A stretch of 64,000 nt of DNA, taken from a bacterium (GTDB taxonomy: Bacteria; Patescibacteriota; Minisyncoccia; UBA6257; Colwellbacteraceae). Under the pieces are notes generated by a model. The model was not told the origin of the DNA and made no database searches. It saw only the letters and a list, made by a program, of their open reading frames with translations. The stretch is taken from positions 1,563-65,562 of the forward strand of contig JAKPNH010000008.1 of the NCBI GenBank assembly GCA_029548485.1, read 5' to 3'. The translations under genes were made by a program, and so were the position numbers. Positions 3,445 through 64,000 of the stretch are shown in pieces (position 1 is the stretch's first letter; the number at the start of each line of letters is the position of its first letter).

Positions 3445-3457
3445 GATAAATATGAAG

Positions 3458-15183: not shown

Positions 15184-15184
15184 T

Positions 15185-21329: not shown

Positions 21330-21330
21330 A

Positions 21331-21361: not shown

Positions 21362-21383
21362 TAAATCAAATTATTATTTAAAG

Positions 21384-21908: not shown

Positions 21909-21930
21909 TTTCCTTATTACAACTATTGTA

Positions 21931-22506: not shown

Positions 22507-22509
22507 TTA

Positions 22510-23157: not shown

Positions 23158-23226
23158 AATAATTTTAAGCCTACAATATACCTCTTATATTGACAAATAT
23201 ACTTATTTGTTATAAAAAACATATAA

Positions 23227-23784
23227 ATGAATAATGAATCTTTAGAGGATGCCTGCAAAAAACTCGTTAGCGTTCTTAATCCAGAATGGGAGACAAATCC
23301 CGACATGAAGGAAACCCCTTTAAGAATTGCTAAAATGTATGCTAGCTTCTTTAGAAACGAAGACACCACGCAATATTTTAGTAAAAGATTCCCTACTAAA
23401 AACAAAGAGTTAGTTATTTTAAAAAATATTGAATGTTTCGGTATGTGTCCACATCACCTTACGCCCGTAATTTATAATGTGCATATAGGATATATTCCGC
23501 GTGGTTGGGCTATCGGTCTAAGCAAATTAGCTAGAATTGCTATTGCTTTATGTAGCTACCCTAAACTTCAAGAGAACTTTACTTCAGAAGTAGCTAATGT
23601 CATTAATGATAATTTAAAGCCTAGAGGAGTAATCGTTGTGGTAGAAGGTATTCATAACTGTATTAGATGCCGAGGAGTTGAAAAGCTTTCAACATGTATA
23701 ACTTCTGAGATCAGAGGAGTATTTATTAATCATCCTGAAACTAAACAGGAATTTATTAGTTTAATAAGTTTAAACAATTATTGA
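23227..23784 (+). CDS. folE: GTP cyclohydrolase I
   Basis: Zinc/active-site motifs CPHHLTP...HIGYIP, GLSKLARI, VVVEGIHNCIRCRGV. Confidence 0.85.
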   Translation: MNNESLEDACKKLVSVLNPEWETNPDMKETPLRIAKMYASFFRNEDTTQYFSKRFPTKNKELVILKNIECFGMCPHHLTPVIYNVHIGYIPRGWAIGLSKLARIAIALCSYPKLQENFTSEVANVINDNLKPRGVIVVVEGIHNCIRCRGVEKLSTCITSEIRGVFINHPETKQEFISLISLNNY

Positions 23785-23813
23785 TATAAATCCATTATTA
23801 AAAATGGATAAAT

Positions 23814-31970: not shown

Positions 31971-33590
31971 TTATTCGAGCGTCAAGCCGATCCGGCTTAT
32001 GTCGGCCGGGATGCTTCTCACCCAGAAAGGCCAGAGGGTGACGACCGCCGACTGGATCTCCTCGTCTCCGGCGACATGGAGGCTGAAATCTTCTTCGGAT
32101 TTTCCGGCCACGGCCGACTTGAATCCTTCGGCGTCGAAAGCCCTTGACCATTCCGAAACGATGGTTACGGGGATGATCGCCTTGCCCGTATCGAAGTTGA
32201 CGCTCGCTTCGCCGTAATCTATTTCGTAGCTTTTCATCTCGTAATCCTCGCCCGGACCGCTTGTTTCCAGCTTTTCCTCGGCCACTTTGCGGACGCTCGC
32301 CTCGTCGAAAGCCATGATTTTGGTTTCGGCGGCGAGCATCAATTTGAAGTTCCCTTTTTCGTCGACGTCTTCGATCACCTCTTCCTTGACGATGGCGTAT
32401 GAGGTCGCTCCTTCGATAGCCCGGAGAGTTTCGGGAACGGTGATGTCTTCGGCCGCCTTGACCATGGCTAACAACTCTTGCCTGGACTTTTCTTTGAGGC
32501 TCGCGATGTCCGCTTCCGTGGGCACTTTGACGTCGCCCACGAATCCGCCGGACATGGCTTCTTTGGATTCCCCGTAAAATCCGTTGAACTTTGGCGTGCC
32601 TTCGAATCCGGGTATGCGCCAGCTTTGTCCGGCCGGAAGATTGTAATCGCTCCCCGGTTTTTCCGCCGTCACCTTGACGTCGATCGCGGAGGCCACTATT
32701 TTTCCTTCGCTGATCGCCGCCCCGGGAATGGTGATCGCCTCGGTTGTTTTGAAAACCTTCCCGCCGGTGGTGATGAAGCGCGTTCCCTTGACGATCGACT
32801 GCTTGCTCGAGCTGTAGGCGTTGTAAACCGTAATGATGCCTTCGGCGCTCTGCTCAACTTTTTTGGTGCCGCTCGCCGGAGCGCTGAAAACGTTGTTTTT
32901 ATCGATGGAGAACACTTGGCCGGGAATGGTGAATCCGGTTTCGGCGCTCGCCTTGATCGAAGCGGTGATGGCGATCGGCGTTTCCCAGCGCGTTTTCGCG
33001 AGCGTCAAACGCGCCTCCGCCTTCGGCAGGAGGAAAACGGCGGCGTAAGCCAATGCTCCGGCCAAAAGGATTCCTCCGGACGAAAAAACGACTATCTTCA
33101 ATCTTCTCGATTTCCGCGGCCGATCCTCGGGCGCGGGTCTCGGCCTAGGCGGTTCAGGGCTGTATTCGCGGATTATCGGTTCGGTTTCCGGAAATTTCTC
33201 TTCTTCCGGATGAATCGGCGCGGTTTCTTCCCGGGGAACGCGCACCGGCCGCGGCTTTACGCGGGCGGAAACCGGAATGATGTCGGCCACGGCCCGTTTC
33301 ACTTTCTTAAAAACGGGGTTGATCACCTGGAAACCCGAAGCCAAAGCGAGATCGACGATGTCTTCGTCGCTTGACTCGACGATCACCTGCTTTCCCATGG
33401 CCGAAGCCTCGCGGAAAATCAGATAAAAATTGTTTCCGTTCTCTCCGAGCAAGGAATATCTCGGAACGGCCAAAATAACCTTGGACTCGCGGCTGTTCAA
33501 GATCTTTTGGATGACCGCGGCCGCGGAATCGGTTTTTTTGAGGTATATTTTTTTGTTTTCGGGTTTTTCCATCAGCTTATGTTGAGCCAT
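31971..33590 (-). CDS. hypothetical membrane protein: cytoplasmic N-domain, Pro-rich linker, single TM, large extracytoplasmic domain
   Basis: 539-aa ORF; TM segment [23 protein letters not shown] after a [14 protein letters not shown] linker; no family recognised. Confidence 0.5.
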
Positions 33591-49679: not shown

Positions 49680-51023
49680 TCAAGGATTTTCGGCGCCAAA
49701 AGGACTGACCAAACAGAAATCCGCGTCGCTCTGGTCGGTTACCGACTCCTTGAATCGGCAATCGCTCAAACAGTCTTCGTCGCAACAGCCGATATAATCG
49801 TAGGCGTAGCTCAAGGCAATCCTATAGTCCGATCCGATCGGACGTTCCGATCGCAGGATAACGGTTTCCGTGCCGTCATTTTCGGTGATAATCGAGCTTA
49901 TGACCGCATTTCCTTTGAGCAGACTGACGCGGATGGATTTGTCGTCAGAAACGGGGCTGGTTCCGCTGCTCCGCCAGTTCACGGTCATCTGGTCTCCGGG
50001 AGCGAAGCTTTGGCCGCCGTTCGGATAATCGACTTCTGCCCAAGCCCTTTGGTCGGTTACGGCCTCCGGAGTCGGTCTTTTTTCTCCGCCGAGGCAAACA
50101 ACATTCCTGGTCGAAGCTGGATCCGCTCTTTTTTCTCCGTTCACGACGGCTTCCGCGAAAGCCCCGAGTCCGGCCCTCGAGATCCGGCCATCAACGACAA
50201 AATCCGAAATAAAATCGATGTCTAATTTAAGCCCGGCTGCCGCAATCATTCCGCGCAGCTTTTCCAAGTCCAAAATCCTGTCGGTCAAATCGATTCTCTT
50301 GGAAAGGAGAAAATCTTCAACGTTCTTCCCGTAGTCTCCGGAAAGCGTTTGTTTCATCAGGATCGTGTCTCCGGTCAGCCGCATGATAATCGCTCCGGCT
50401 TCGAGGATGTCGGCTGGAGTTTCCAAGCTTGCGGAAGCCGTTTCCTCTAGTTTGCCGGCCGGGCCGATTCCCGAATCTTCAAAGTTCTCGAGAGATATCT
50501 CCGCTCCGGAAACATAGGGCTCGATCCAAGCCATAAACCAGCGGCCGTCGATTTTCTTTAAATAAAAAACATCTCGATCGATTTTGATTTCCGGCGGCAA
50601 TCCCCAGATATTGCTTTTGGTCTCCGCGGCCACGAAAACAGCCGCTTTGTCCGAAGAATGATCCAAGATTTTGACGTTTAAAATATCGATTATTTCGAAA
50701 CGCCTCTGTTTCGCGTTCAGGCTGTCCCGAATGAACCCGTTCGCTTCCGCGATCAAAAGCCCTTTTCCGTTATCGACGGCGTAGGCGTCTATGAAATCCC
50801 GCCAACTTTTGTTGGTGTTTATGTTCCTCGCGTAATCGGAGTAATAATCCGATACGAACCGGCTAATGGCGACTCTATCGTTTTTGGAAAGATAACCGAA
50901 CAATCCCAAATCCCCGACTGCCCAAACGGCTCCCGCAATCGCGGCGAATAGGATCAGAATATACAATATTCTCCGATTCGACGGAGGTTTCGAAGATACC
51001 GGGCGTCCCGTCTTGCGGCTCAT
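49680..51023 (-). CDS. hypothetical large membrane-anchored extracytoplasmic protein (pilus-cluster associated, candidate tip or adhesin protein)
   Basis: Start taken at the internal Met (MSRKTGRP...ILYILILFAAIAG TM); C-terminal Cys cluster (IGCCDEDCLSDC); first gene downstream of the minor pilins. Confidence 0.5.
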   Translation of the reverse strand: MSRKTGRPVSSKPPSNRRILYILILFAAIAGAVWAVGDLGLFGYLSKNDRVAISRFVSDYYSDYARNINTNKSWRDFIDAYAVDNGKGLLIAEANGFIRDSLNAKQRRFEIIDILNVKILDHSSDKAAVFVAAETKSNIWGLPPEIKIDRDVFYLKKIDGRWFMAWIEPYVSGAEISLENFEDSGIGPAGKLEETASASLETPADILEAGAIIMRLTGDTILMKQTLSGDYGKNVEDFLLSKRIDLTDRILDLEKLRGMIAAAGLKLDIDFISDFVVDGRISRAGLGAFAEAVVNGEKRADPASTRNVVCLGGEKRPTPEAVTDQRAWAEVDYPNGGQSFAPGDQMTVNWRSSGTSPVSDDKSIRVSLLKGNAVISSIITENDGTETVILRSERPIGSDYRIALSYAYDYIGCCDEDCLSDCRFKESVTDQSDADFCLVSPFGAENP

Positions 51024-51472
51024 CTTATTTCTTCGGTGAAAGTGATTTCGAGCGTGCGCACGATCTGACCGGTCGCATCTTTGCCGACGGCGTACCATTT
51101 TTCTATCAAAGCCGATCCCGGTAAGCGATTGGGATAACACTTACTCGGATCGTCATCAATGTCCGAACACCTCTTATAAACCGTAAAAGTCTGCCCCGTA
51201 TCATCGAGTTGCCCATCTTGCCCCGCGACTTCCGCCAGGCATACCGCGCCGCAACCCTGCCAGCAGCATCCGAACCGGCGCATCAATATCCTTTCGATGC
51301 CGGCGTCGGCCGAGAAAAGGGCCTGGGTCGACTGGCTGATGCTACTCGCCTGCCGCAGTTCGTAGACCACGAGCAAATTGGCCAAAGCTGTCGCTCCGAG
51401 AATGACGATCGACATCGTGAAAACCATAAAAAGCATGGTCTGTCCTCTGGATGTTTTTTTGCGGATGTTCAT
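51020..51472 (-). CDS. atypical pilin-like membrane protein
   Basis: N-terminus KKTSRGQTMLFMVFTMSIV resembles a prepilin leader but lacks Glu+5; CCxxGC motif. Confidence 0.4.
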   Translation of the reverse strand: MNIRKKTSRGQTMLFMVFTMSIVILGATALANLLVVYELRQASSISQSTQALFSADAGIERILMRRFGCCWQGCGAVCLAEVAGQDGQLDDTGQTFTVYKRCSDIDDDPSKCYPNRLPGSALIEKWYAVGKDATGQIVRTLEITFTEEIR

Positions 51473-51473
51473 T

Positions 51474-52001
51474 TTAAGAAGAGGGCCTGTAATAGAACAA
51501 CCTTTCGCTTATCGTCGTTTGGAAAGTGAGTGGACCCTTGAACAAGGAGCTTTCCACTTGTATTTTGATCGTCACCCGTGGCGGATAATTGTCCGACTCG
51601 GTGATATAAAATCTCAAATCCGTCACCCGTACATCGTCGGCGGTCAAACGCTTCGGCATCTCGGCGCCTACCTTTCTCGTGATATAATCGCCACCCGGAG
51701 GCCTCATATACGTTACTTCCTGCCCCAGGTATTTGACGAATCGCAACGAATTCGTTCCTTCCGGTGTGGAATAATTTGTGCCGGTCCTTATCTCCCGCGC
51801 CATTTGCTCTATCACCAAAGAAAGATTATCCAAAATAGCCGTCTGGTTGGCCACGTTCCGCTCTGCCTTCAAAGAATTAGTAAAAATGGAGAGAATCAGG
51901 AAAACGACGCCCACGAAAACTCCCAAAGTGACGGTTACTTCCACGAGAGTAAACCCTGATTTTTTAGAAAGATTTATCATATTCATTGTTCCGCGCGCCA
52001 A
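51474..52001 (-). CDS. prepilin-type N-terminal cleavage/methylation domain protein (minor pilin)
   Basis: KKSGFTLVEVTVTLGV class III signal peptide. Confidence 0.7.
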   Translation of the reverse strand: MARGTMNMINLSKKSGFTLVEVTVTLGVFVGVVFLILSIFTNSLKAERNVANQTAILDNLSLVIEQMAREIRTGTNYSTPEGTNSLRFVKYLGQEVTYMRPPGGDYITRKVGAEMPKRLTADDVRVTDLRFYITESDNYPPRVTIKIQVESSLFKGPLTFQTTISERLFYYRPSS

Positions 52002-52543
52002 CCGATAAAATCCGTGGCTATTTTCGACGATCTGATTTCGGCCGGGTGTCTCGGATCGTACCAGGCTACGGTCGCGATCGCTCGGATTTTAAGATCGGAA
52101 AGAGGCCTGATTTGGATCCATCTTTTAAAAATAGTCGCGGTCGTTTCTCCCGCTTCGTTATAATCGTACAGACCTTCGCCGTTGATTCTTAAAAAACGTG
52201 CTTCTCCAAAAGTAAGATCGATGTCATTTTCACTTGGACCGTCGCAAGTCAATAAATGCCGCAAATCCGATTCGGAATGCATACTCTCATAAAATACCTC
52301 GATGCAATCGTTGTCGGAAAAGTTCTCGTTCCAGGAGTCTTCGCGAACAACATTGCTATCCAGAATGTTTTTCGTCACCTCGAGGCCTTCGGCCGCCAGA
52401 TTGGCGGCGATAAATTGGTCGGTAACGACCGAGCTTGTCCGAAGGGCGCTTATCGCCAAACTAAAAATGCCGAGGACGCTAGAGACGATGATTCCCATGG
52501 CGATCATTCCCTCGACGATGAATTGCCCTCTGGTGCTTCTCAT
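51983..52543 (-). CDS. prepilin-like minor pilin
   Basis: TRGQFIVEGMIAMGI N-terminal motif (G-1, E+5). Confidence 0.55.
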   Translation of the reverse strand: MRSTRGQFIVEGMIAMGIIVSSVLGIFSLAISALRTSSVVTDQFIAANLAAEGLEVTKNILDSNVVREDSWNENFSDNDCIEVFYESMHSESDLRHLLTCDGPSENDIDLTFGEARFLRINGEGLYDYNEAGETTATIFKRWIQIRPLSDLKIRAIATVAWYDPRHPAEIRSSKIATDFIGWRAEQ

Positions 52544-52563
52544 ATTGTTTGATTATAGTCGGT

Positions 52564-53148
52564 TTAACGCACTATCGAAACCATACCCGAAGCGAGCACC
52601 CCCACTTGCCGCGGTGTCCCGGACCCGTCCCTAGCTCTTATGGTAATAATTATTCCACCGTCGCCTCCGGCTTCGGAGTCGAACACCACTGTCGGATCCG
52701 GCGGGACAAATAATATTTTCTGCTCTCCACTTACAAACTCCACAAGTGGATCAAGAGTCATAAAGTAGAGCGACCCCACGGAAGACAAATCCGTAGTTTC
52801 GCCTATCAGCGGATTAAACAAAGCATCGAAAGCGCATCCCTCGTCTATGCCTACGTCCCTAAAAATATAAGCGCGGTCTTCTCCGGGAACGATATGCACG
52901 CCGTATCCGCAAACAAGTCCTCCTTGAGGATCGGCCAGGGTGGCGATGCTCAAAAATCTCGCGTAAGTGATGAGGCTTCTCAATTCTTCCTGGCTTTTGG
53001 AAAGCGTGAATTCTCTCTTGATCGAAGCTCCGGAAATACTCATCGACATCAAAAGCAAGGAAGTGATGCCGATCGTCACCACCATTTCGACCAACGTAAA
53101 CCCTGGCGCCGATTTTTTAAGCAAGGTTGAAGAACCGAAAATAGCCAT
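52564..53148 (-). CDS. prepilin-type minor pilin
   Basis: APGFTLVEMVVTIGI class III signal peptide. Confidence 0.7.
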   Translation of the reverse strand: MAIFGSSTLLKKSAPGFTLVEMVVTIGITSLLLMSMSISGASIKREFTLSKSQEELRSLITYARFLSIATLADPQGGLVCGYGVHIVPGEDRAYIFRDVGIDEGCAFDALFNPLIGETTDLSSVGSLYFMTLDPLVEFVSGEQKILFVPPDPTVVFDSEAGGDGGIIITIRARDGSGTPRQVGVLASGMVSIVR

Positions 53149-53962
53149 TACATATATTAAAGCCCAAAAACACGATTAAGAGAATCCCGAGCGCCATAAA
53201 CGGGCCGAAGGGCAGCATGTCTTTCATTCTTTTTTTTCGCAAAAGCAAGCTCATTCCTCCGAAAACTCCGCCCAAAATAAAGGAAAGCATCAAGGCCAAG
53301 ACTATGTCCGGCCAGCCGATAAAAAGTCCGGCGGCCGCCCCGAGCTTGGCGTCGCCCATGCCCATTCCTTTACCTTTCGTGAAAAAAATCAATCCCATAA
53401 AAAGCAGTCCGCCGAAAGCCGCGGCCGCCAAATGATTCAAAAAAATGTTCTGCCGCAACCCAAGAACGCTCGCGTAATATCCGATAAACGACCCCTCGGT
53501 CAGGCCGAAAGCCTTGGTCTGCGAACCGAGCAGAACGAACAATATTCCCAACAATCCGATGAAAAGGTTCAGTTCGTCCGGTATCACCTGGAAATAAAAA
53601 TCGATGAAAGACAAAACAAGGAGGCTTAACGCGAAAAGCGCGATCAAAAGTGCTTGCAAAGTCAAACCCCATTTGAGATAAGCCGCGACGAGGATAAGGC
53701 CGGATAAAATCTCGACGATCGGATATTGCCAGGATATTCTCCTGTGGCAGTTGCGGCATCTTCCTTTCTGTATAAAAAAACTGAAGATTGGAACAAGCTC
53801 GAACCATCTAAGCGTCTCGCCGCAAGAGCGGCATTTTGACCTGCCGCCGAGATGGATGCCGACCAAAGCGGTTTTATCCGGATCGTAACGTAAAATTACG
53901 ACATTCAAAAAGCTGCCGATGCAAACACCGAAAAAAAACAAAAAGAAATAATTAGCAAACAC
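53117..53962 (-). CDS. pilD: prepilin peptidase (A24 family)
   Basis: N-terminal CxxC...CxxC zinc-binding region and polytopic membrane domain with conserved Asp residues. Confidence 0.85.
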   Translation of the reverse strand: MFANYFFLFFFGVCIGSFLNVVILRYDPDKTALVGIHLGGRSKCRSCGETLRWFELVPIFSFFIQKGRCRNCHRRISWQYPIVEILSGLILVAAYLKWGLTLQALLIALFALSLLVLSFIDFYFQVIPDELNLFIGLLGILFVLLGSQTKAFGLTEGSFIGYYASVLGLRQNIFLNHLAAAAFGGLLFMGLIFFTKGKGMGMGDAKLGAAAGLFIGWPDIVLALMLSFILGGVFGGMSLLLRKKRMKDMLPFGPFMALGILLIVFLGFNICNGYFRFFNLA

Positions 53963-53969
53963 TATATAA

Positions 53970-54440
53970 TTACCTCACGCAGTACAAATTGTCTTGTGGA
54001 AAATCCGGACCGCAATTTAATCCATAAAGTGCTCCCTCATAGCTATCTACCGGAACCCCCCTCTCCATTCTTGCTCCTAGAACGTACTCAAAACCCCTCG
54101 GGATATTCACACCATATCGATAATCTTCTCCCGACGGGTCATTATCAGGAATATCCGCCTCATCTGCTACAGTTGCTACAAGAGCATCCTTTAAAGCGTC
54201 CCAACTAGCTGGTGCAGACACACTTCCCGGAGAACAAGTCGCTCCACCAGGATAATGCCCGCATCTATTGTAATAGAGCTCCAAATAGGTCTGGACTTTT
54301 TTAAGATCAGCCATCCTCCTCGTATCTCTCGCGTTTGATTGGACACTACGCGTTCCATTGAAGACCAATCCCATCAAAATGCCGATGACCGCGATAACGA
54401 TCACCATCTCGATCAATGTAAAACCTTTTTGCGATTTCAT
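53970..54440 (-). CDS. pilA: type IV major pilin
   Basis: QKGFTLIEMVIVIAVIGIL prepilin leader and hydrophobic alpha-1 helix; C-terminal Cys pair. Confidence 0.75.
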   Translation of the reverse strand: MKSQKGFTLIEMVIVIAVIGILMGLVFNGTRSVQSNARDTRRMADLKKVQTYLELYYNRCGHYPGGATCSPGSVSAPASWDALKDALVATVADEADIPDNDPSGEDYRYGVNIPRGFEYVLGARMERGVPVDSYEGALYGLNCGPDFPQDNLYCVR

Positions 54441-54508
54441 GTTTTTTGATTTTTTACGACTTTTATTTTTACCGTTTGACCCGAGTTTATATGTTCATTC
54501 TACCCGAA

Positions 54509-55717
54509 TTACAGCGTGGAGACAAACTGGAACATCGGCAGAAGGATCGAGGCGAAAAGCCCGGCCACGGCGCCGCCGATAACGATCATTAAAACCGGCT
54601 GGATCAGCTCCACCAGGTTGCCGACGGTTTCGTCGACCTCGCGGCTGTAAAATCCGGAAAGTTTCGATAAAAGCTCGTCCAAGCGGCCGGTGGTCTCTCC
54701 GACCGCGACCATTTGGCTCACTAGCGGAGGAAAAAGCTCCTGGTTTTTGGCGAGGGACTGCGACAGCAATTCTCCCCGCCTGATGTCTTCGGCCGAAGCT
54801 TTCAGGGCCTCGCCGTAAATCATGTTACCGATGGTTTCTCCGGTGATCTCCAGTGCTTGGGCGATCGGGATGCCGCCTTTGATGAGGATGCTTGCCGATT
54901 CGCCGAACTGGGCGATGGCGATATAGCGGAATAATTTGCCGAAAACCGGCATCCGGAAAACCAACTCGTCGTAAACGATCTTACCCTCGGCCGACCGGAA
55001 ATAATCCGCAAAAAAGAAAACCAGGGCGATGATGGCGAAAAAGACCAAAAACCACCATTGGGACAAAAATTGCCCGAAAACCACCAGGGCGTGGGTAAAA
55101 CCCGGCATCTGTATCCCCGAAGAGACGAACATGTCTTCGATCTGCGGCAAGACGCCGATAACAAGATAGGCGGCGACGCCGAGGAAGAGAAAAATCGTCA
55201 CCATCGGATAAGTCATCGAGTTTTTGATTTTACCGGACAAGGTCGCCTGGCGTTCGTAATAATCGGCCAAGTAATTGGCCGCTTCCTCGAGCCGGCCGGT
55301 GATTTCCGCCGACCTGATCATGTTCACGTAAAACGGCGAAAAGACGTTCTCGTATTTTTCCAAGGCCTGCGAAAGCGCCAAACCGGAATCGATGTCTTGG
55401 CGCACTTCTTCGATGGTTCTTTTTAAAAGGGTGTTTCTGGTTTGGTCGACCAGAGTTGTGAACGTTTTGTCGAGCGGCACTTGGGCCGAAAGCAAGGTGG
55501 CGAATTGCCTCGTAAAAACCATGAGATCGCGCAGACCCACCCGTTCGCCGAAAAACGGCAAACCGGCAAGGAAAGATTTCTTTTCTTCGCTTTCCAAGGT
55601 GAGAATGAAAAGCTCGTGCCCGGTCAAAATGCCGATGGCCGATTCCCTGGTCGGCGCTTCGACAAACCCGGCTTGAAGCTCTCCTTCTTTGGTTCTCGCT
55701 GAATACTTGAATCTCAT
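54509..55717 (-). CDS. pilC: type IV pilus inner-membrane platform protein PilC (GspF family)
   Basis: Duplicated GspF domains with TM segments. Confidence 0.9.
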   Translation of the reverse strand: MRFKYSARTKEGELQAGFVEAPTRESAIGILTGHELFILTLESEEKKSFLAGLPFFGERVGLRDLMVFTRQFATLLSAQVPLDKTFTTLVDQTRNTLLKRTIEEVRQDIDSGLALSQALEKYENVFSPFYVNMIRSAEITGRLEEAANYLADYYERQATLSGKIKNSMTYPMVTIFLFLGVAAYLVIGVLPQIEDMFVSSGIQMPGFTHALVVFGQFLSQWWFLVFFAIIALVFFFADYFRSAEGKIVYDELVFRMPVFGKLFRYIAIAQFGESASILIKGGIPIAQALEITGETIGNMIYGEALKASAEDIRRGELLSQSLAKNQELFPPLVSQMVAVGETTGRLDELLSKLSGFYSREVDETVGNLVELIQPVLMIVIGGAVAGLFASILLPMFQFVSTL

Positions 55718-55723
55718 CGGTTT

Positions 55724-56794
55724 TTACATCCGCTCGAGCAAAATCCTCAATTCCGAAGGATTCAAGGAATAAAGCTCGGCGTTCTCCAAAGAAATTTCCC
55801 TTTTTTTGACGAGGTCGGCCAAGGACCGGTTTAAAGTGGTCATTCCTTCCTGCAGGCTCGTCTCGATGACGAGATCGATCTGGTAGATCTTCTTTTCCCT
55901 GATCAAATTCCTGATGGCGGAATTAACGAACATGATTTCGCAGGCCGGGACGCGGCCGCCGTCAATGCGCGGCACGAGCCTCTGGGAAACGATGCCGACC
56001 AAAGTGGCGGCGAGCTGGGACGTTATCTGGCCTTGCTGGCTAGACGGGAAAGAATCGATGATGCGGTCGATGGTCTGGGCCGCGGAATTGGTGTGGAGGG
56101 TGGAAAAAACCAGGTGCCCGGTTTCCGCCGAAGTCATGGCCGTGGCGATGGATTCGGAATCCCTCATCTCGCCGATCATCACCACGTCCGGATCCTGGCG
56201 GAGCAAAGATTTAAGAGCCTGGTGGAAATTAAGGCTGTCGGTCTTCACTTCTCTTTGGGAAACGATGCACTTGTCTTGGACGAAGAGGTATTCGATCGGG
56301 TCCTCAATGGTGATGATGTGATCCATCCTCTTGTGGTTGATCTCGTCAACCAAAGCCGCCAAAGTGCTCGATTTTCCGTGCCCAGCCGGGCCGACGACCA
56401 AAACAAACCCCTGGGAAAGGCCGGTGAATTTGTGGAGGATCGACGGCAAGTGCAATTCTTCGAGGGTTTTGATCTGCGCCGGTATCAACCGGAGCGAAGC
56501 CGCCATGAATCCGCGCTGGAAAAAGACGTTGACGCGGAAACGGGCCTTGTCCTCGAAAGCATAGGAAAGGTCGAGGTCGCGGTAAGTAAGGAACTTTTCT
56601 TTCTGTTCGTCGGTAAGCAAGGCCCCGATCAGGCCAGCGGTCATTTCCGGAGTCAAAATCTGCTCTTTCGGCATGTCGATCAAACTGCCGTCGATGCGCA
56701 TCATCGGCCTTCGGCCGACTGCCAAATGCAGATCCGAGGCGTTGCTCCTCGCGGTCATCAGGAGCAGTTCGTTCATTTTTTGCCTGTAATCCAT
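55724..56794 (-). CDS. pilT: type IV pilus retraction ATPase PilT
   Basis: Walker A GPAGHGKSST; about 356 aa; PilT-type Asp/His boxes. Confidence 0.9.
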   Translation of the reverse strand: MDYRQKMNELLLMTARSNASDLHLAVGRRPMMRIDGSLIDMPKEQILTPEMTAGLIGALLTDEQKEKFLTYRDLDLSYAFEDKARFRVNVFFQRGFMAASLRLIPAQIKTLEELHLPSILHKFTGLSQGFVLVVGPAGHGKSSTLAALVDEINHKRMDHIITIEDPIEYLFVQDKCIVSQREVKTDSLNFHQALKSLLRQDPDVVMIGEMRDSESIATAMTSAETGHLVFSTLHTNSAAQTIDRIIDSFPSSQQGQITSQLAATLVGIVSQRLVPRIDGGRVPACEIMFVNSAIRNLIREKKIYQIDLVIETSLQEGMTTLNRSLADLVKKREISLENAELYSLNPSELRILLERM

Positions 56795-56843
56795 GTTGTT
56801 TGTTTTATTCTCCGGAATTCGTTGATTTTTATTATAACACGGC

Positions 56844-58577
56844 CTATTCCGTCTCCCTCAAAACTTCTTCGATTGATATAAATCCGTCCAATACTTTCAA
56901 TATACCGTCCTGCCTCAAAGTGATCATTCCCTGGCGCTCGCCTTCGTCGACGACATCGGCTTCGGTCGGGTTGCTGGCGATTATTTTTTCGAGCTCTCTC
57001 GTCATTTTCATGATTTCGAAAATGGCGATGCGGCCGGCGGTCCCTTTTCCCTTGCAGGCCGGACATCCCGGCGAGTGGAAAATCTGATAAGGCTCTTTAT
57101 AGATCAGTTTCGATCTTACGTCTTCCGGAAGCTTGGCGATCTCTTCCTTGATGATTTTCTGGATTTCCGGCGAAGCGGTTTCGGCTTCACGGCACTTTTC
57201 GCAAAGCCTTCCCAGAAGCCTTTGGGACATCATCAGGTTCACAGCCGACGGCAAAAGAAAAGGAGGAACTTTCATGTCGATCAATCTCGGAATGACTCCA
57301 GCGGCGTTATTCGTATGGAGCGTGGACAAAACAATGTGCCCGGTCAAGGCGGCGTTCACCGCCAAACCGGCGGTTTCGTTGTCGCGGATCTCGCCGACCA
57401 TGATGATATCCGGATCCTGCCTCAATATCTGGCGCAGCCCGGAAGCGAAATCGTATCCGATTTCCGGCTTCACCTGCGACTGGTTGACGCCCTCGACGAA
57501 ATATTCGACCGGGTCTTCCAAACTGACGATGTTCACGTCCTCCTGGTTTAAAATCTTCAAAAGCGCGTAAAGGGTGGTCGTTTTTCCGGATCCGGTCGGA
57601 CCGGTGACGAGCACCATTCCGAAAGGCTTCCTGATTCCCTCCTGGATGATGTCGGCGTTTTTGCCGACGATCCCCAAGCTATCGATACCCTTCAAACCGA
57701 TGCTCGGATCGAGAACGCGGAGCGCCACTTTTTCGCCCACCGGCGTCGGGAAAGTGGCGACGCGGAAATCAATGTCCCGCCCGAAGATCACCGTCCGGAA
57801 ACGGCCGTCTTGCGGGATCCTCGTTTCGTCTATCTTCAAATCGGAAAGGATCTTGATCCTCGAGACAAACGGCTGCTGGAGCTCTATGGGTAAAGAGGCC
57901 ACCTCTTCCAAATCGCCGTCCATCCTGAATCTCACCCTGACCCTGTTTCTCATGGGCTCGACGTGGATGTCCGAAGCCTTGCGTTCGACCGCCTCCCGGA
58001 AGGTCGAGGCGACCAATTTGATGATCGGCGCTTCCTCGGCCACTCCTCTCGCTTCCTCGAGTGCCACCGGCCGCTGCATGGAAGAAACCCCGTCGCCGGA
58101 TTTGATGCCCAAAGATTTTATCGCCGCCTCAACTTCGGACTTGTAGGGATTGTATCTGCGGAGCACGAGCTCCAGATCCGCCGGAGTGATGATGAAAACC
58201 CCCAAGTTCAGTCGATTGGCTTTGGCGATGAACCTCAAAGCGTCCTGCGCCCGACTGTTCTGGGGGTCGACCATGCCGACGATAAGCATGTCTTTGGTCC
58301 GCGAAATCGGAGCCACCTTGTAAGTTTGGACCGTTTCCTTCGGCACCAAAGCCAAAAGATCGTCGGTCAAAGACTCCACGTTTATTTTTTGGTAAGGAAT
58401 GCCGATGATCTCGCTTTTGATTTCGGCGATCTTTTCTTCGGGCACGGTCCGCCGCAAATAAAGCAGGTCTTCAACCGGCCTCTGGGAAACCGCCGATTCT
58501 TTCAAAATCTGCTCGCCGGCTTCTTTGGTGAGCAGATTCTTTTTGACGAGGGCCTGCGTTAAAACCTGGGAATCCAT
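56844..58577 (-). CDS. pilB: type IV pilus assembly ATPase PilB (GspE family)
   Basis: N-terminal GSPII domain plus Walker A GPTGSGKTTT and C-terminal CxxC tetracysteine. Confidence 0.9.
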   Translation of the reverse strand: MDSQVLTQALVKKNLLTKEAGEQILKESAVSQRPVEDLLYLRRTVPEEKIAEIKSEIIGIPYQKINVESLTDDLLALVPKETVQTYKVAPISRTKDMLIVGMVDPQNSRAQDALRFIAKANRLNLGVFIITPADLELVLRRYNPYKSEVEAAIKSLGIKSGDGVSSMQRPVALEEARGVAEEAPIIKLVASTFREAVERKASDIHVEPMRNRVRVRFRMDGDLEEVASLPIELQQPFVSRIKILSDLKIDETRIPQDGRFRTVIFGRDIDFRVATFPTPVGEKVALRVLDPSIGLKGIDSLGIVGKNADIIQEGIRKPFGMVLVTGPTGSGKTTTLYALLKILNQEDVNIVSLEDPVEYFVEGVNQSQVKPEIGYDFASGLRQILRQDPDIIMVGEIRDNETAGLAVNAALTGHIVLSTLHTNNAAGVIPRLIDMKVPPFLLPSAVNLMMSQRLLGRLCEKCREAETASPEIQKIIKEEIAKLPEDVRSKLIYKEPYQIFHSPGCPACKGKGTAGRIAIFEIMKMTRELEKIIASNPTEADVVDEGERQGMITLRQDGILKVLDGFISIEEVLRETE

Positions 58578-58578
58578 T

Positions 58579-58881
58579 TTACAAAGCGGCGAAAGGATTT
58601 TCCTTTCCGAGGCTGTTCGGTCCGATGACCGGAAGATCGACCGACCTTCGCGGCGTTTCCGAAGAGAAGAATTCGTCTTGAAGAATTTCCTCCGGATTGA
58701 ATTTCAAACCGCTCAAATCGGCCACGGACTGGAGATTGGCCGGCAGGATCGCCTCGATGAGCGGCGCCGGGGTGAAAAAGAGATAATAGGCGCCGATGGC
58801 GAGAATGGCCAGAGCCGACGCCGCGGAAATTAGAATGAACGTTCTCGACCCTCTTTGATTCGGTTGGATGATGACTGCCAT
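58579..58881 (-). CDS. small membrane protein of the pilus cluster
   Basis: Single TM (FILISAASALAILAIGAYYLFF); position between pilO-like and pilB. Confidence 0.4.
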   Translation of the reverse strand: MAVIIQPNQRGSRTFILISAASALAILAIGAYYLFFTPAPLIEAILPANLQSVADLSGLKFNPEEILQDEFFSSETPRRSVDLPVIGPNSLGKENPFAAL

Positions 58882-58882
58882 T

Positions 58883-59443
58883 TTATTCGTAATATGTGTT
58901 GATTATTAATTGAAGGGAATAAATATTGGCTCTGCCGGAGGCGCTGACATTCATCGAGGAAACGTCCATCAGCCTCATATTGTTCTCGATATCGCGGATA
59001 AAAGCTTTGAGGTTTTCGTAAGAGCCCTCGGCTCTGACCGTAGCCCGCAAAACCCCGTAAGCGGAAACGAGAGAGTTCCCGTTAGACTGCATCGGCGGAT
59101 GCTGGAAACTGACGCTCGCCACCGTCACCTGGTTCGCGGCCGAAAGTCCGTGGATCTGCGCCAAAACTTCGGGGATTTCTTCGTCTGGAGGCAAAGAACG
59201 GTCGAGATCGTCTTTGTACTGGAAGCTGTCCTCGTATTGCCTCGCCAAATTGGCGAAAGCCTCCACCTGGGCCGCGGCCCGGCTCAAAACAACGGCCGCG
59301 GCGTCCCTATCCGCCCTGAGCTGTTTGACGCCGTTCTCTCCCTCGAATTCCGGCCTGATGAAATTGGTGAACACGAAAACGGCCGCCACCAAAAGGGCGA
59401 TGCCTCCCAGAATGCTCAAGAATCTTTTAAAGGAAGAAGCCAT
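58883..59443 (-). CDS. pilO: PilO-like pilus assembly protein
   Basis: N-terminal TM plus coiled coil; position downstream of pilN-like. Confidence 0.55.
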   Translation of the reverse strand: MASSFKRFLSILGGIALLVAAVFVFTNFIRPEFEGENGVKQLRADRDAAAVVLSRAAAQVEAFANLARQYEDSFQYKDDLDRSLPPDEEIPEVLAQIHGLSAANQVTVASVSFQHPPMQSNGNSLVSAYGVLRATVRAEGSYENLKAFIRDIENNMRLMDVSSMNVSASGRANIYSLQLIINTYYE

Positions 59444-59972
59444 TGTTAAAAATTATTTGCATTTGGAAAGAGACCCCGGTCTGTCCGAGAGTCGCCCCGC
59501 CTATGGAAACGCTTTCCACCTCCTGAAGATTCCGGAAAACGTCGAGCTGGCTCGCCAAGGCTTCGTAGTTTACGGCCGTTCCGCTCAAATTCGCCGTCAA
59601 GCTCGGAATGTCGAGGTCCATCGAGCTGTAGGCGACGTCTTGACGGGTATTCGTCTCGAGAAACGGAAATACGTTCGAAGAAAAAACATGCCTCGAAAGC
59701 AGCGTCTTCAAGTTTTCTATCTGGGAATAGAAATCTATGAAGGCCTGTCTGTCTTGCGGGGAAACCTGCTCGTCGAGAGCGTCGATCTGCGCTTTTATAT
59801 CCTCGGTGTTGCTTAAAAGAAAAGGCTTGTACCCGTAAGCCAATCCGAAATAGCTTACTCCGAGCAGAATGAGGATGAATAAGGAAAATATCAAAAGTCT
59901 TGTCGGCCAACCGGCGGGTTCTCGGCCGACGTTGAATCTCTGATCGATGTTTGTTGAATATTGCGGTGGCAT
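59427..59972 (-). CDS. pilN: PilN-like pilus assembly protein
   Basis: Short cytoplasmic N-terminus, TM, periplasmic domain; follows pilM. Confidence 0.5.
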   Translation of the reverse strand: MPPQYSTNIDQRFNVGREPAGWPTRLLIFSLFILILLGVSYFGLAYGYKPFLLSNTEDIKAQIDALDEQVSPQDRQAFIDFYSQIENLKTLLSRHVFSSNVFPFLETNTRQDVAYSSMDLDIPSLTANLSGTAVNYEALASQLDVFRNLQEVESVSIGGATLGQTGVSFQMQIIFNNGFFL

Positions 59973-59975
59973 TTT

Positions 59976-61064
59976 TTAAAATTGCCTTAGTCCGAGGCCG
60001 ATCGCGACCGCGAGCGTCCCTCCCAATTCGTTCACCACTGGCTGGAGCGCCGGCGGATAGCTCAAAGCGGAAAAAGGACTGGGCCGTTCGACTTTCATTT
60101 GCAGGAAATCCGCGGCGTATTTATCCAAGCCGGCAAGCTCGCCGCCTCCGCCGGAAAGGATCAACTTTCCGATTTGGCCGCGATAGTTCTTCTCGAAATT
60201 GTCTTTCACTCGTCTTACTTCATTAAGTATAACATCGACGTAAGGCAGCATTAAAGTGGACAACTCGTATTCTCCGCCCATCCCGAGCAAACCCCGGCGT
60301 TTTTTCAATTCTTCGGCTCTTCTCACGTTGATGTTCAAGCCGTTCGAGACCGCCTGGCTCATGGATCCGCCGGCATAATCGAGATAAGCGCTCGACAATA
60401 AATATCCGTTTCTCGCGACGTAAAGTCCGGTCGATCTTCCGCCGATGTCGAGGATCAAAGAGAGCTCTTCGTCTCCTTTCGTAAAAACCCGGGCGAGGCT
60501 CATCCCTTCGATTTCGATCACCCTCAAGTTCAGACCGGCGGCCTGGAAAATGCTTTTGTATTTCTCGACGATATTGTTCGGCATGGCCGAAAGAAAAACC
60601 TGCTGCTTTCTCTGCCCTTTTTCGTCTTCGAATTCGCCGACCACCGACCATTCGGTGGCAACCGAAGCGATTGCCGCCGGCACCAAGGCCCGCGCCTGGT
60701 AGGACATGATCTGGTCCATCTCGTTTTTCGGCATCAGCGGCAGCTCGAGCAAGGTGGTGAAAGCGGAAAAAGGTGGCAGAGAAGCGAAAACCGCGGCCGC
60801 TCCGGGCTTCACTTGCCTGACGAGTGTTTGGAGCATGTTGGCCGCCTCCTTGTCGTCCATTTTGAGACTGCTCGTCTGGATGGCGCTGTTTTGCCGGGAA
60901 AGATGGCTGTAGGTTTCGAGCAGCCCGTAATTTTTGAAATTCGGCCGGTCGGCGACGATGGCGAGTTCGACCAGCTTGATTGAAGTCGTTCCGATGTCGA
61001 CCCCGATGGCCGACTGAAAAGAAAGCAGGGGTTTTAAGGGCTTCAAAAAATCGAGTATCGCCAT
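59976..61064 (-). CDS. pilM: type IV pilus assembly protein PilM (actin-like ATPase)
   Basis: Actin-fold phosphate motifs (VGVDIGTTSIKLVELA). Confidence 0.8.
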   Translation of the reverse strand: MAILDFLKPLKPLLSFQSAIGVDIGTTSIKLVELAIVADRPNFKNYGLLETYSHLSRQNSAIQTSSLKMDDKEAANMLQTLVRQVKPGAAAVFASLPPFSAFTTLLELPLMPKNEMDQIMSYQARALVPAAIASVATEWSVVGEFEDEKGQRKQQVFLSAMPNNIVEKYKSIFQAAGLNLRVIEIEGMSLARVFTKGDEELSLILDIGGRSTGLYVARNGYLLSSAYLDYAGGSMSQAVSNGLNINVRRAEELKKRRGLLGMGGEYELSTLMLPYVDVILNEVRRVKDNFEKNYRGQIGKLILSGGGGELAGLDKYAADFLQMKVERPSPFSALSYPPALQPVVNELGGTLAVAIGLGLRQF

Positions 61065-61088
61065 GAATTGCTATTATTAATGATAGCA

Positions 61089-61778
61089 CGAATGCCGAAT
61101 CCCACGAATATCAAAGAACGGCTTCTGGATCTCGTTTTTCCGAAGCTTTGCCTGAATTGTCATCGTCTTCTCGAAGAACCGATCGATAAAGAAAACCTCT
61201 TGTGCGGCCGCTGTTTCGGTTCGATCGTCGTCAACCGCCTGATATTCCCGGAACCGGGATTTTTTCTCGGCAGCGCCACTCTTTACAAAATAGAGGCCGC
61301 GAGAAATCTGATTCATTTCCTTAAATACGAAGATTTTCCCGGAGTGAAGCATCCGATCGCTAAAATAATCAAAGCCTATCTCCGAAAATCCGCTTTTATC
61401 GATCTTTTCCGCAACGCCAAGCCGGAAATCGTTCCCGTTCCCCTTTATTTCCTGAAATCCATAAACCGCGGATTCAATCAGGCCGAAGACATCGCCGAGG
61501 TTTTGGCCGGCGAAACCGGCTGGCCGACCCGAAACCGCTTGCTTCGAAGAATCAGAAACACGCGATCCCAAGCCAAGCTCGAACAAAAATCAGAAAGACT
61601 GGAAAATATGGCCGGCGCCTTTATTTTAAAAAGCGGTTTAGAAGAATACGTCGTCGGAAAAAGCTTTATCGTTGTCGACGACGTTTACACTTCGGGCGCA
61701 ACCATGTCCGAAGCGATCAAGGTATTGAAATCCGGCGGCGCCAAAAGCGTCGCCGGATTCGTATTCGCGAAAGGATAA
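61089..61778 (+). CDS. comF: competence protein ComF (zinc-ribbon + phosphoribosyltransferase domain)
   Basis: N-terminal CxxC...CxxC and C-terminal PRTase motif FIVVDDVYTSGATM. Confidence 0.8.
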   Translation, partial: RMPNPTNIKERLLDLVFPKLCLNCHRLLEEPIDKENLLCGRCFGSIVVNRLIFPEPGFFLGSATLYKIEAARNLIHFLKYEDFPGVKHPIAKIIKAYLRKSAFIDLFRNAKPEIVPVPLYFLKSINRGFNQAEDIAEVLAGETGWPTRNRLLRRIRNTRSQAKLEQKSERLENMAGAFILKSGLEEYVVGKSFIVVDDVYTSGATMSEAIKVLKSGGAKSVAGFVFAKG

Positions 61779-61780: not shown

Positions 61781-63214
61781 TCAGCAAGGACCATCTACGC
61801 AACTCCAGGATCCACTCCAACCGCCATGAGACGAGCATCTGCTAAGGCAAGTTTCGGGGCCTCCCACATATTGGCATTTTACTCCGGCGCCCAAACTTCC
61901 TGACGGCGTATAACCATCGTTGCAGGTGCAACTCCAACTTCCCGGGCTGCACGATTCGCATATAAAGATCCAGTTGCAAAACTTTCCGGATGAACAATCG
62001 GAATCACTGCAACATTGGCAACAGGAAGTGCTGCAGCCTAAAGAAGTCTCCGAACCGGTTCCAGAACAACTGCCGCCGCTACAGACTTGGGTAACTTGTA
62101 TTCTGTTACAGAAAGAGCAGGTATAGCCTGTGCCGCAATAATTTCCATCTGTGTCTCTCGAACAACCGCAAGATCCGGATCCCCCGGAGAAAGTTCCATC
62201 GGCATTGCAGGTGCTTGTCGTTGTCGTGCCGCTGGCCGATTCATCACAACTAGACGAATAATTACAAGAGCAGCCTCCCGTGGTGACTGTTCCCGGATAA
62301 ACGCTCGCACTATTATCGTTACAATCGATGCCGCCGGAATTCAAAGTGTTTCTGCGTTTTCCATTTGTTGGAGCCGCATCTTGAAGATATTGAGTGGCGT
62401 TCGCCGGATAGGTGTCGTTATCAAAATCAACCATCCAAATATTGGTTTTTCTAAGCGCTCCGTCCTCTCCCAAAGCGATCGCTCCGTTTACGGTAATGGT
62501 TTTCCCGGAATTGAAGGCGAAGGGAGCGTTAAGCGTCAGGGTAACTCCTCCGTTGATCGTTAAATTGCCGTTATCCACTCCGTCGGCCGTGGAAATAGAA
62601 CAGTTGCTGCTCAAAGTGGCGTTTCCGCCCATGGGAATGCCGCAGGCGTCGCTCCAAGCCAAAGTGATCGAGTTTTCCCGTCCGGCCGCGTCTTTGGCCA
62701 AGAAAACCGTGTGATAGACGGAATCATGGGTGTCTTTGACGATCCATTCTCCTTCGTATAAAGACGCTCCACGCTGTTTCGGCGTTGATTGGAATCGCCT
62801 TAAAAACTCTTTGAATATATTTTCCTCTCCTGTTTCTTTGATGGAGGATGCTGCTGATTCTGTTTGTCTTACGAATTCCAAGGGCAGAATCACGACGTCG
62901 TTATCGGTCTCGATATGCGCTTCGACCGAAACGATTTCCGCATCGTCGTCGACAACTACCGACAATTTCTGCGTGTTTCCGACATGGACATCGACCGGAT
63001 CGATGATCGCCTCGACAAACTTCGGCCAAGTTTCTTCGGCCTGACTGATGTGGTACACCTGCCTGCCCTCCGGAAGAACAAGCTTTTTCCCGACGGCGCT
63101 CGGCGATTCCGGGTTTCTATTCATAACGGCGTCGATGGCAAAAAGGGCGAGAACGATCAAAATAACGACAGCGGCGATTTTTCCGGCGTCGATTTTCTTG
63201 AAATCAAATTTCAT
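61781..63214 (-). CDS. membrane-anchored cysteine-rich surface protein (about 40 Cys in the C-terminal 200 aa; Gly/Ser/Thr-rich)
   Basis: N-terminal TM anchor, beta-rich middle, then dense Cys repeats (CSCNYSSSC..., CCQCCSDSDC...). Confidence 0.6.
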   Translation of the reverse strand: MKFDFKKIDAGKIAAVVILIVLALFAIDAVMNRNPESPSAVGKKLVLPEGRQVYHISQAEETWPKFVEAIIDPVDVHVGNTQKLSVVVDDDAEIVSVEAHIETDNDVVILPLEFVRQTESAASSIKETGEENIFKEFLRRFQSTPKQRGASLYEGEWIVKDTHDSVYHTVFLAKDAAGRENSITLAWSDACGIPMGGNATLSSNCSISTADGVDNGNLTINGGVTLTLNAPFAFNSGKTITVNGAIALGEDGALRKTNIWMVDFDNDTYPANATQYLQDAAPTNGKRRNTLNSGGIDCNDNSASVYPGTVTTGGCSCNYSSSCDESASGTTTTSTCNADGTFSGGSGSCGCSRDTDGNYCGTGYTCSFCNRIQVTQVCSGGSCSGTGSETSLGCSTSCCQCCSDSDCSSGKFCNWIFICESCSPGSWSCTCNDGYTPSGSLGAGVKCQYVGGPETCLSRCSSHGGWSGSWSCVDGPC

Positions 63215-63223: not shown

Positions 63224-64000
63224 TTATTTGACCTTTAGGCCTGTTCCCGGTTCCGCGTCTTTGGGAACGTTCGGCCATTCCAGATAGTCAAACCTCGGCG
63301 CGGTCAGCCGGTAAGAGACTTCGAAATCCCCGCTTGTTTTATCTGAGCTTCCCGCAATCAAAATGCGGTTATTCGCGACGTCTTTTTCGTAATAAACTTC
63401 GCCTTTGAATCCGGGCGTGAGGAGAATACTCAAATTTTTCCATTGTTCTCCGAAATTGGTCGTGCTGCGGAAAAGCCAGAAATCAGATCCCTTGTCCGCG
63501 AAGGCGAAATTGATTTCTCCCGAAAATTCACCGTTGCCGATGTCGGTCAGTTTCAAAACGCCGGTCGTTTCTTCTTTCACTCCGGTCATGCCCGGAGTAT
63601 AAGTCGAATACTGCTCGCCGTTAATGTTGAAGAGCGGGTCCACCGTACCCACGGTCAGTTTTCCGGACCCGCCACCGACAACCACCGTGTCTCCGGCCGC
63701 GGTGCCGAAACGCGCCGTAGTCGCGCCTCCGCTTACGACATCGAGTTTATATCCCGGAGCGGTTGTTCCGATACCGACTTTGCTAGCGTCGTCGATGCTG
63801 ATCGCCGCCGCCGAAAGAGAACCATCCGTTTGGATAACGCCGATGTCTCCGAATGAATTATCTCCGGTCCGGCGGCCTCCTTTGATATAAATACCCCTAT
63901 CGTTTGAATGGTTGATCCTCACTATTGCCGCCGAATTATCGGTGTCATTCCCTCCCTCGAAACGGGCCACTTCGACTTCTCCGGCGATCGTGGCGGCAAG
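63224..64000 (-). CDS. partial Gly-rich fibre/tail-fibre-like surface protein (5' end beyond the window)
   Basis: The frame stays open to the window edge; contains the IGTTAPGYKLDV motif typical of phage tail-fibre / endosialidase-chaperone-like repeat proteins. Confidence 0.5.
   Translation of the reverse strand, partial: LAATIAGEVEVARFEGGNDTDNSAAIVRINHSNDRGIYIKGGRRTGDNSFGDIGVIQTDGSLSAAAISIDDASKVGIGTTAPGYKLDVVSGGATTARFGTAAGDTVVVGGGSGKLTVGTVDPLFNINGEQYSTYTPGMTGVKEETTGVLKLTDIGNGEFSGEINFAFADKGSDFWLFRSTTNFGEQWKNLSILLTPGFKGEVYYEKDVANNRILIAGSSDKTSGDFEVSYRLTAPRFDYLEWPNVPKDAEPGTGLKVK

Follow-up and report, generated by a model that had tools for sequence, protein, structure and literature searches.

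What kind of machine does the pilus-like gene cluster in the ultra-small genome of this Candidatus Colwellbacteria (Patescibacteria) cell encode, and are its unusual-looking features really unusual? We addressed these questions for positions 49680-61778 of a 64,000-nucleotide stretch (the window) of contig JAKPNH010000008.1, assembly GCA_029548485.1. Our analysis indicates that the locus is very probably a conserved, monoderm-type, retractile type IVa pilus (T4aP) operon. It comprises 14 close-packed genes on the minus strand (49680-61064) and a divergent comF on the plus strand (61068-61778). The minus-strand genes are, in order, pilM, pilN, pilO, a gene for a 100-amino-acid (aa) membrane protein, pilB, pilT, pilC, the major pilin gene, pilD, four minor pilin genes and a gene for a 447-aa membrane-anchored protein. 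An initial annotation had counted twelve minus-strand genes; the open reading frame (ORF) list gives 14, among them four genes for minor pilins and one for the 447-aa protein, which is not a pilin. Distances between minus-strand genes range from -32 to +68 nucleotides, several stop/start pairs overlap, and the 68 nucleotides preceding the major pilin gene form the sole sizeable gap. Genes called independently on the identical contigs of four samples made up the same set. Scans for promoter and terminator consensus sequences showed no enrichment over shuffled controls, and a promoter-like site just upstream of the major pilin gene (54525-54497, 9/12 match) was not significant; the operon structure is therefore deduced from gene spacing only.

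We found that the core assembly proteins could be identified by profile searches. The extension ATPase PilB (56844-58577; this and all genes described below, other than comF, lie on the minus strand unless stated otherwise) matched T2SSE (PF00437) with 418.6 bits and MshEN with 51 bits. Among NCBIfam models, PilB scored highest with TIGR02538 PilB (554 bits), followed by GspE (498), ComGA (236) and the TadA family (51); these scores fall below the equivalog cutoffs for PilB (675) and ComGA (300), and also below that for GspE. The protein carries a Walker A motif (GPTGSGKT), DPDIIMVGEIRD, a Walker B motif, a His box and two CxxC motifs (CEKC...CPAC). The retraction ATPase PilT (55724-56794) matched TIGR01420 pilT_fam over its full length with 425.9 bits (cutoff 319.1), and contains Walker A and Walker B motifs, a His box and the AIRNLIRE motif. 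The platform protein PilC (54509-55717) contains two T2SSF domains (PF00482, 179.6 bits); its NCBIfam scores, 330 bits for GspF and 315 bits for the Thermus-type PilC, are both under cutoff. Finally, PilD (53117-53962), a bifunctional prepilin peptidase and N-methyltransferase, matched A24_N_bact (PF06750) with 98.7 bits and Peptidase_A24 (PF01478) with 46 bits, and has a CRSC...CRNC motif along with IPD and GMGDAK, the contexts of the two catalytic aspartates. All ORFs of the locus are intact, and PilB, PilT, PilD and ComF each contain all of their catalytic motifs.

The three proteins of the alignment complex are encoded by separate genes. PilM (59976-61064), the actin-like cytoplasmic member, matched PilM_2 (PF11104) over its full length with 98.5 bits (cutoff 27), and scored 130.4 bits with NCBIfam TIGR01175 (cutoff 133). 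PilO (58883-59443) has one N-terminal transmembrane (TM) helix, and matched PF04350 PilO with 33.6 bits (cutoff 22) and T2SSM_b with 23.7 bits. The bitopic protein between them, encoded at 59427-59972, had no direct Pfam match, and a single-sequence search of the PDB returned nothing meaningful. However, PF05137 PilN was matched by 5 of 12 of its homologues (best E value, 4e-4). In its predicted topology, a brief N-terminal stretch in the cytoplasm leads into a single TM helix, followed by a long helix or coiled coil and a C-terminal, ferredoxin-like alpha/beta domain. The top Foldseek matches to its AlphaFold2 (AF2) model (predicted local distance difference test [pLDDT] score, 77) were the periplasmic, ferredoxin-like domains of PulL/EpsL/XcpY (at their C-termini), PilO, Thermus PilN and EpsM. 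On the strength of its homologues and predicted fold, we accept this protein as PilN.

The gene between pilO and pilB (58579-58881), which occupies the position of pilP, encodes a single-pass membrane protein of 100 aa that belongs to no named family. We found a protein of this family, with a typical length of about 97 aa (range, 94-119), directly after PilO in 52 of 54 related loci. Its members have in common an N-terminal MAIxxEE motif, one TM helix, the motif YYxFF..PEL and a C-terminal GRxNPF. The protein here had no Pfam or NCBIfam match, its orthologues have no Pfam domain on record, and a family-profile search yielded no credible PDB match. This protein could stand in for PilP in stabilizing PilN-PilO, or could link the machine to the wall or surface layer.

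The probable major pilin, so judged from its position and size, is a 156-aa protein (53970-54440) with a class III signal peptide (MKSQKG/FTLIEM), Phe1, Glu5 and a C-terminal Cys pair. It matched N_methyl with 38.2 bits and TIGR02532 with 34 bits (cutoff 16.3), while its best NCBIfam match, GspG (42 bits), is under cutoff. Four minor pilin genes follow pilD. Minor pilin 1 (52564-53148; G/FTLVE), in the PilH/GspH/ComGD position, matched N_methyl with 24.6 bits and ComGD weakly (E = 1.5e-4), and Glu5 is retained in 17 of 17 orthologues. Minor pilin 2 (51983-52543; G/QFIVE), in the PilI/GspI/ComGE position, has a conserved YLAAEGIE motif and is identified at the family level: the protein itself had no direct Pfam or NCBIfam match, N_methyl was matched by 4 of 12 family members, the family profile weakly matched pilin N-terminal helices in the PDB, and the orthologues keep Glu5. 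Minor pilin 3 (51474-51986; G/FTLVE), in the PilJ/GspJ/ComGF position, likewise keeps Glu5; it gave weak matches to ComGE/ComGF (E about 6-8e-6) and GspJ (6e-3), and its family profile matched pilin N-terminal helices with an E value of 1.7e-4. Single-sequence PDB searches with the four minor pilins returned nothing meaningful, and the matches from family-profile searches with minor pilins 2-4 were confined to the generic pilin N-terminal helix. In a six-frame scan of the 64 kb, we found just four Glu5-type class III N-termini, all of them in this locus: those of the major pilin and minor pilins 1-3.

Minor pilin 4 (51020-51472; SRG/QTMLF) has no Glu5, and on this basis the initial annotation had called it atypical. 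We found instead that it is a conserved and expected fourth core minor pilin: Glu5 is absent in 18 of 18 family members, as it is in the tip-capping pilins PilK/GspK/ComGG. In the 17 related loci with a full pilin series, Glu5 is always kept in pilins 1-3, and in 15 of 16 related loci minor pilin 4 ends the series after pilD. The four co-encoded genes after pilD, with the last of them lacking Glu5, correspond to the core minor pilin set PilH/I/J/K. Members of the minor pilin 4 family have in common the motif A-x-F-[AS]-A-D-[AST]-G (here within a conserved ALFSADAGIE), and their only recurrent Pfam signal is PilX_N (PF14341), which appears, always below threshold, in 9 of 10 close relatives and 6 of 14 diverse members (best E value, 1.1e-3). 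Like the capping pilins GspK, PilK, PilX (of Pseudomonas aeruginosa) and ComGG, minor pilin 4 is the last of a four-gene set and has a prepilin N-terminus without Glu5 (PMC10191384), and the weak PilX_N match supports the likeness. In contrast to GspK, however, members of this family are far smaller (about 120-150 aa), and the globular domain showed no significant sequence match. From its sequence features, we interpret minor pilin 4 as a putative PilX_N-like capping pilin of the PilK-GspK-ComGG type. In one relative (L075), the Glu5-less pilin (14534-15538) is 334 aa long and may have gained a domain.

Components of other systems were sought by profiling the ORFs of the locus together with every unassigned or ambiguous ORF of the window; SMC, UvrA/B/C, YchF, tRNA synthetases, ribosomal proteins, DnaG and GroEL/ES were named from sequence or from precomputed Pfam matches instead of being profiled. 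No secretin, PilP, TsaP-like/LysM, ComEC, ComEA or DprA family match was obtained among the profiled ORFs, and none of these families appeared among precomputed Pfam matches in the 10 kb that follow the window. The parts that define a diderm T4aP, namely PilQ and PilP with TsaP or a pilotin, were thus not found within this scope, and the earlier statement that PilQ, PilP and TsaP are missing holds for it, with no secretin nearby. In contrast, every part of the T4aP definition was present: class III pilins, an A24 peptidase, PilB and PilC, PilM-PilN-PilO, and PilT. Other definitions did not fit. The TadA-family model gave PilB only 51 bits, versus 554 bits for the PilB model, which argues against a Tad system or type IVc pilus. 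A type II secretion system (T2SS) is distinguished by GspC and GspD, which were not found in the profiled ORFs, and here PilM and PilN are unfused and PilT is present. Likewise, PilM, PilN, PilO and PilT, all present here, do not belong to the monoderm Com (ComG) pilus. We therefore rejected the T2SS, Tad and Com-pilus assignments on the basis of profile scores and the presence of PilT and PilMNO. Thus, the assignment of the ATPases to a type IV pilus withstood profile searches that could have moved PilB and PilT to type II secretion or Tad, and the components named at the outset were likewise borne out, with PilN and the minor pilins recognized at the fold or family level only.

This arrangement is conserved. 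A scan of metagenome contigs with a PilN profile yielded 73 loci, with PilN identities of 24-91%, and these plus three others gave 76 relatives, which we compared using locally built, iterative hidden Markov models. The relatives exhibit a stereotyped order in which a divergent comF is followed by pilM, pilN, pilO, the small TM protein gene, pilB, pilT, pilC, one or more pilin genes, pilD and minor pilin genes 1 to 4, all in one direction. This order is kept even among relatives whose PilN proteins are 24-40% identical. Gene identities, intact catalytic motifs and conserved order are, then, direct observations.

The divergent gene at the end of the cluster encodes a ComFC/GntX-like protein with a phosphoribosyltransferase fold (Pribosyltran, 31.9 bits; cutoff 26.3) and an N-terminal double zinc ribbon (DZR_2, 22.9 bits, just under cutoff). 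It contains two CxxC motifs and IVVDDVYTSG, which resembles a loop that binds phosphoribosyl pyrophosphate (PRPP). Its best NCBIfam match was TIGR00201 comF (80.3 bits, under the cutoff of 233.55), with GntX next, and an alternative start at 61092 would give a protein of 228 aa. Among the 46 related loci with enough upstream DNA, a divergent comF adjoins pilM in 34, at a gap of -54 to 243 nucleotides (median, about 40). In the locus studied here, the comF and pilM starts stand head-to-head, 3-27 nucleotides apart (61064-61092), so each promoter must fall within the coding region of the other gene. If fixed, this arrangement would imply that pilus retraction and the hand-over of single-stranded DNA are co-regulated.

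Does another explanation account for these data as well as a retractile T4aP? A dedicated competence (Com-type) pilus, which would capture DNA for transformation or nucleotide scavenging and for which adhesion would be secondary or absent, is the alternative that can claim most, and we still consider it unlikely. It draws on the head-to-head comF and pilM, both here and in 34 of the 46 related loci; on the minor pilins, whose best, though weak, NCBIfam matches are to ComGD/E/F; and on a DprA gene near the pilNO module of relative L024. Furthermore, genomes from the Candidate Phyla Radiation (CPR) reportedly lack nucleotide synthesis, and DNA uptake by their pili has been proposed (PMC7143001, PMC10633639), while the comABCDEF locus of nontypeable Haemophilus influenzae (NTHi) joins pilMNOPQ homologues to comF (PMC4644294). 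However, Com pili lack PilMNO and PilT (PMC10191384), both of which are present here, the ComGA model scores far under the PilB model (236 versus 554 bits), and Saccharibacteria can do without their com genes while the type IV pilus (T4P) is essential to them (PMC10633639). The presence of PilT, above cutoff, likewise speaks against a T2SS-like pseudopilus that exports proteins and builds no surface pilus, since T2SS lack PilT and have been reported only in diderms (PMC10191384). This second alternative, which we regard as very improbable, finds some footing in NCBIfam matches that are under cutoff, with GspF the best for PilC (330 bits) and GspG the best for the major pilin (42 bits), as well as in the matches of PilO to T2SS M-type families and the resemblance of the PilN model to GspL C-terminal domains. 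Nevertheless, PilM and PilN are separate genes with no fused GspL, the PilB model scores above GspE, and no GspC or GspD was found among the profiled window ORFs or the precomputed Pfam matches 10 kb past its end.

That the locus is a decaying, non-functional remnant or an assembly artefact seems to us barely credible: several proteins do score under curated equivalog cutoffs, which is nothing specific, while all ORFs and catalytic motifs are intact, separate assemblies from several samples contain the same locus, and gene order is conserved in relatives with PilN only 24-40% identical. Three points nonetheless weigh against our preferred interpretation of a retractile T4aP with the functions proposed below. 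PilB, PilC and ComF score under their NCBIfam equivalog cutoffs, and we thus consider these proteins divergent. The identity of the minor pilins as H/I/J/K is drawn only from their number, order, Glu5 pattern and sub-threshold matches. Finally, comEC, comF and dprA of Saccharibacteria are dispensable for growth, and mutants lacking the thin pilus transform normally (PMC10633639, PMC11623550).

How, then, might such a T4aP work? From the gene set and by analogy with known pili, we infer an order of assembly, a tip complex and a function. PilD would cleave and methylate five prepilins. The four minor (H/I/J/K-like) pilins would prime assembly and end at the pilus tip, with the Glu5-less fourth pilin as the cap, and the PilB hexamer, acting via the PilC platform, would polymerize the major pilin. 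PilM-PilN-PilO would anchor the machine, probably with the help of the ~97-aa membrane protein, and PilT would depolymerize the fiber and so cause retraction. Because the fiber would cross only the cytoplasmic membrane and the wall, no secretin or PilP would be needed. Most likely, the pilus serves mainly to attach the cell to a host or a surface and to move it there. By retracting, it may also deliver DNA to an uptake pathway of ComEC, ComF and DprA, a role with which the conserved head-to-head comF would agree.

This model has close parallels among characterized systems. Monoderm T4aP have PilMNO and PilT and no PilP or PilQ (PMC6916266); those of Streptococcus sanguinis and Clostridium spp. 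resemble the locus here in exactly these respects, and also in having no outer-membrane parts, and their retractile fiber is used for twitching and adhesion (PMC6916266). S. sanguinis differs in that it has fewer core minor pilins, plus extra PilI/J/K motility proteins, whereas all four H/I/J/K-like members are encoded in the present locus, as in diderm T4aP, T2SS and Com pili. Among CPR bacteria, the Microgenomates genome Ch65 contains all of its T4P genes in one locus, with PilA, minor pilins, PilD, PilB, PilT, PilC and PilM as here, and the absence of pilQ is explicit (PMC7143001). PilN, PilO and the small protein are unreported for Ch65 (PMC7143001), probably because standard annotation misses them, as it does here. 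The same study found T4P to be widespread in CPR, and proposed adhesion, twitching, DNA uptake and host interaction as their functions (PMC7143001).

The Saccharibacteria provide the nearest functional comparison, as the only CPR bacteria that have been genetically tested. In the reports on TM7x (Nanosynbacter lyticus; T4P-1) and Southlakia epibionticum (T4P1), PilM, N, O, B, T, C and D and a small major pilin occur in one locus, as they do here, together with about four or five further pilins, and no secretin is listed among the components (PMC11623550, PMC10633639). Locus one of TM7x has the same components, and the system with PilT is both essential and tied to twitching; according to the same paper, nearly all members of the group have T4P, whose machinery is conserved and whose pilins diverge strongly (PMC11623550). 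The Saccharibacteria studied belong to another class than Colwellbacteria, and we liken the loci by gene set. Neither the comF adjacency nor the ~97-aa protein is mentioned for the TM7x and Southlakia loci in the available parts of PMC11623550 and PMC10633639.

What do these comparisons say about function? The initial annotation had proposed both host attachment and DNA uptake, and this proposal matches the published view of CPR pili (PMC7143001, PMC10633639, PMC11623550); its first half is the better supported and its second the less secure. Saccharibacteria require their pili to grow as epibionts, to twitch and to bind the host (PMC10633639, PMC11623550). The former report also describes ComEC, ComFC, DprA and T4P as conserved across CPR. 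It states that Southlakia cannot grow as an epibiont without its T4P genes and that comEC is needed for transformation and dispensable for growth, and its authors conclude that the essential role of T4P has nothing to do with competence (PMC10633639). Since growth, unlike transformation, does not require comEC, the scavenging of DNA or nucleotides is the part of the proposal that stands less securely, and because com genes are dispensable and thin-pilus mutants transform normally in Saccharibacteria, a role of the pilus in DNA uptake is unproven. The NTHi comABCDEF locus, in which pilM/N/O homologues are also physically linked to comF, provides a precedent, but one from a diderm that has PilP and PilQ homologues (comD, comE) and a comF co-directional in the operon (PMC4644294). 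By analogy with these systems, attachment and motility appear to be the better-supported function, and DNA uptake, given the conserved comF linkage and the NTHi precedent, is plausible but unproven.

The window contains a PRPP synthetase gene (2468-3412, plus strand) and an NDK-like gene, the latter in the low-GC island described below; some nucleotide-salvage capacity is thus encoded, contrary to the lack that had been assumed for this genome. In addition, the distant relative L024 has dprA (PF02481; 10759-11790, minus strand) and a topoisomerase I gene just downstream of its pilN-pilO-small-protein module, which is another loose linkage between pilus and competence genes.

The last gene of the cluster (49680-51023) encodes a lineage-specific, membrane-anchored, 447-aa protein with an N-terminal TM helix, no prepilin signal and a Cys-rich tail. 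Its start overlaps the stop of minor pilin 4 (ATGA), and the two genes are translationally coupled. In a full-library search, residues ~330-406 proved to be a repeat domain that also occurs in very large surface proteins with strong scores for the Ig-like Kre9/KNH family (PF10342). Only three close relatives were found, and in the other related loci this protein does not follow minor pilin 4. A single-sequence PDB search returned nothing meaningful, and an AF2 model built from a four-sequence alignment (pLDDT, 39) was unusable. We consider this protein a candidate pilus-associated adhesin, which the tip complex may present in this Colwellbacteria lineage to bind a particular host. For TM7x and Southlakia, a large, non-canonical protein without a PilD signal, PilX1, is described as tip candidate (PMC11623550, PMC10633639); that protein has a jelly-roll fold, whereas the protein here is Ig-like (Kre9/KNH).

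Some relatives exhibited features of their own. In L057, a minor-pilin set lies upstream of comF (1-3700), and in L083 two additional pilin genes are found between pilM and pilN. A long tblastn span had suggested an intein in PilB of L005; PilB there is 577 aa long and the span ran into pilT, so this candidate was discarded. We also rejected a 530-aa gene upstream of pilN in L023-type loci as a substitute for pilM, as it is the orthologue of a window gene (31971-33590), is syntenic with alaS and gave no PilM signal. That window gene, located downstream of dnaG-rpoD-alaS on the minus strand, encodes a 539-aa protein with weak GlxA beta-barrel and Baseplate_J matches only. The distant Patescibacteria loci L023, L024, L041 and L043 contain its orthologue in unchanged synteny, and there a pilN-pilO-small-protein module without an adjacent pilM begins directly downstream of it.

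The remainder of the window is occupied by housekeeping genes, including those for UvrABC, SMC, ribosomal proteins, tRNA synthetases, DnaG, RpoD, GroEL/ES and RmuC. Between uvrB and serS lies a low-GC island (20700-23800; GC fraction 0.34-0.39, versus ~0.52 elsewhere) that encodes NDK-like, RibD_C/DHFR-like and Maf proteins, an unknown 215-aa protein and GTP cyclohydrolase I. The island looks like a horizontally acquired cassette for nucleotide and folate metabolism, and it is not a chimera, as the same arrangement was assembled in several independent samples. Beside comF, two minus-strand genes without Pfam matches encode a TM-anchored, very Cys-rich, 477-aa protein (61781-63214) and a 693-aa protein whose gene (63224-64000) runs past the window end. 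Both are conserved in the 89% identical relative L025, whereas L021, which is more distant, does not conserve them; a location at the cell surface is possible for the two proteins.

Our results show that the locus is real but ordinary, the same cluster having already been described across CPR. What is modestly new is an unnamed ~97-aa component, a quantified comF-pilM linkage, a fourth pilin that lacks Glu5 throughout its family, and a lineage-specific, Ig-like add-on protein. We put forward only tentatively, as a possibility we would not favor, that the T4aP operon of Patescibacteria may hold core parts beyond those named in the accounts cited here: the ~97-aa protein (52/54), the comF-pilM pairing (34/46) and, in Colwellbacteria, the Ig-like candidate adhesin. 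Current understanding of these pili is unchanged, and the main use of the analysis is to avoid over-reading features such as "secretin-less" or "atypical pilin". For annotation of this group, it follows that pilN, the minor pilins and the ~97-aa protein escape standard profiles, that a Glu5-less fourth pilin is normal, and that comF is usually found at pilM. T4P are among the few surface machines common to almost all CPR/Patescibacteria and are essential for life on host cells in the cultivated members, and the locus provides a clean, complete example of such a pilus from an uncultivated Colwellbacteria lineage.

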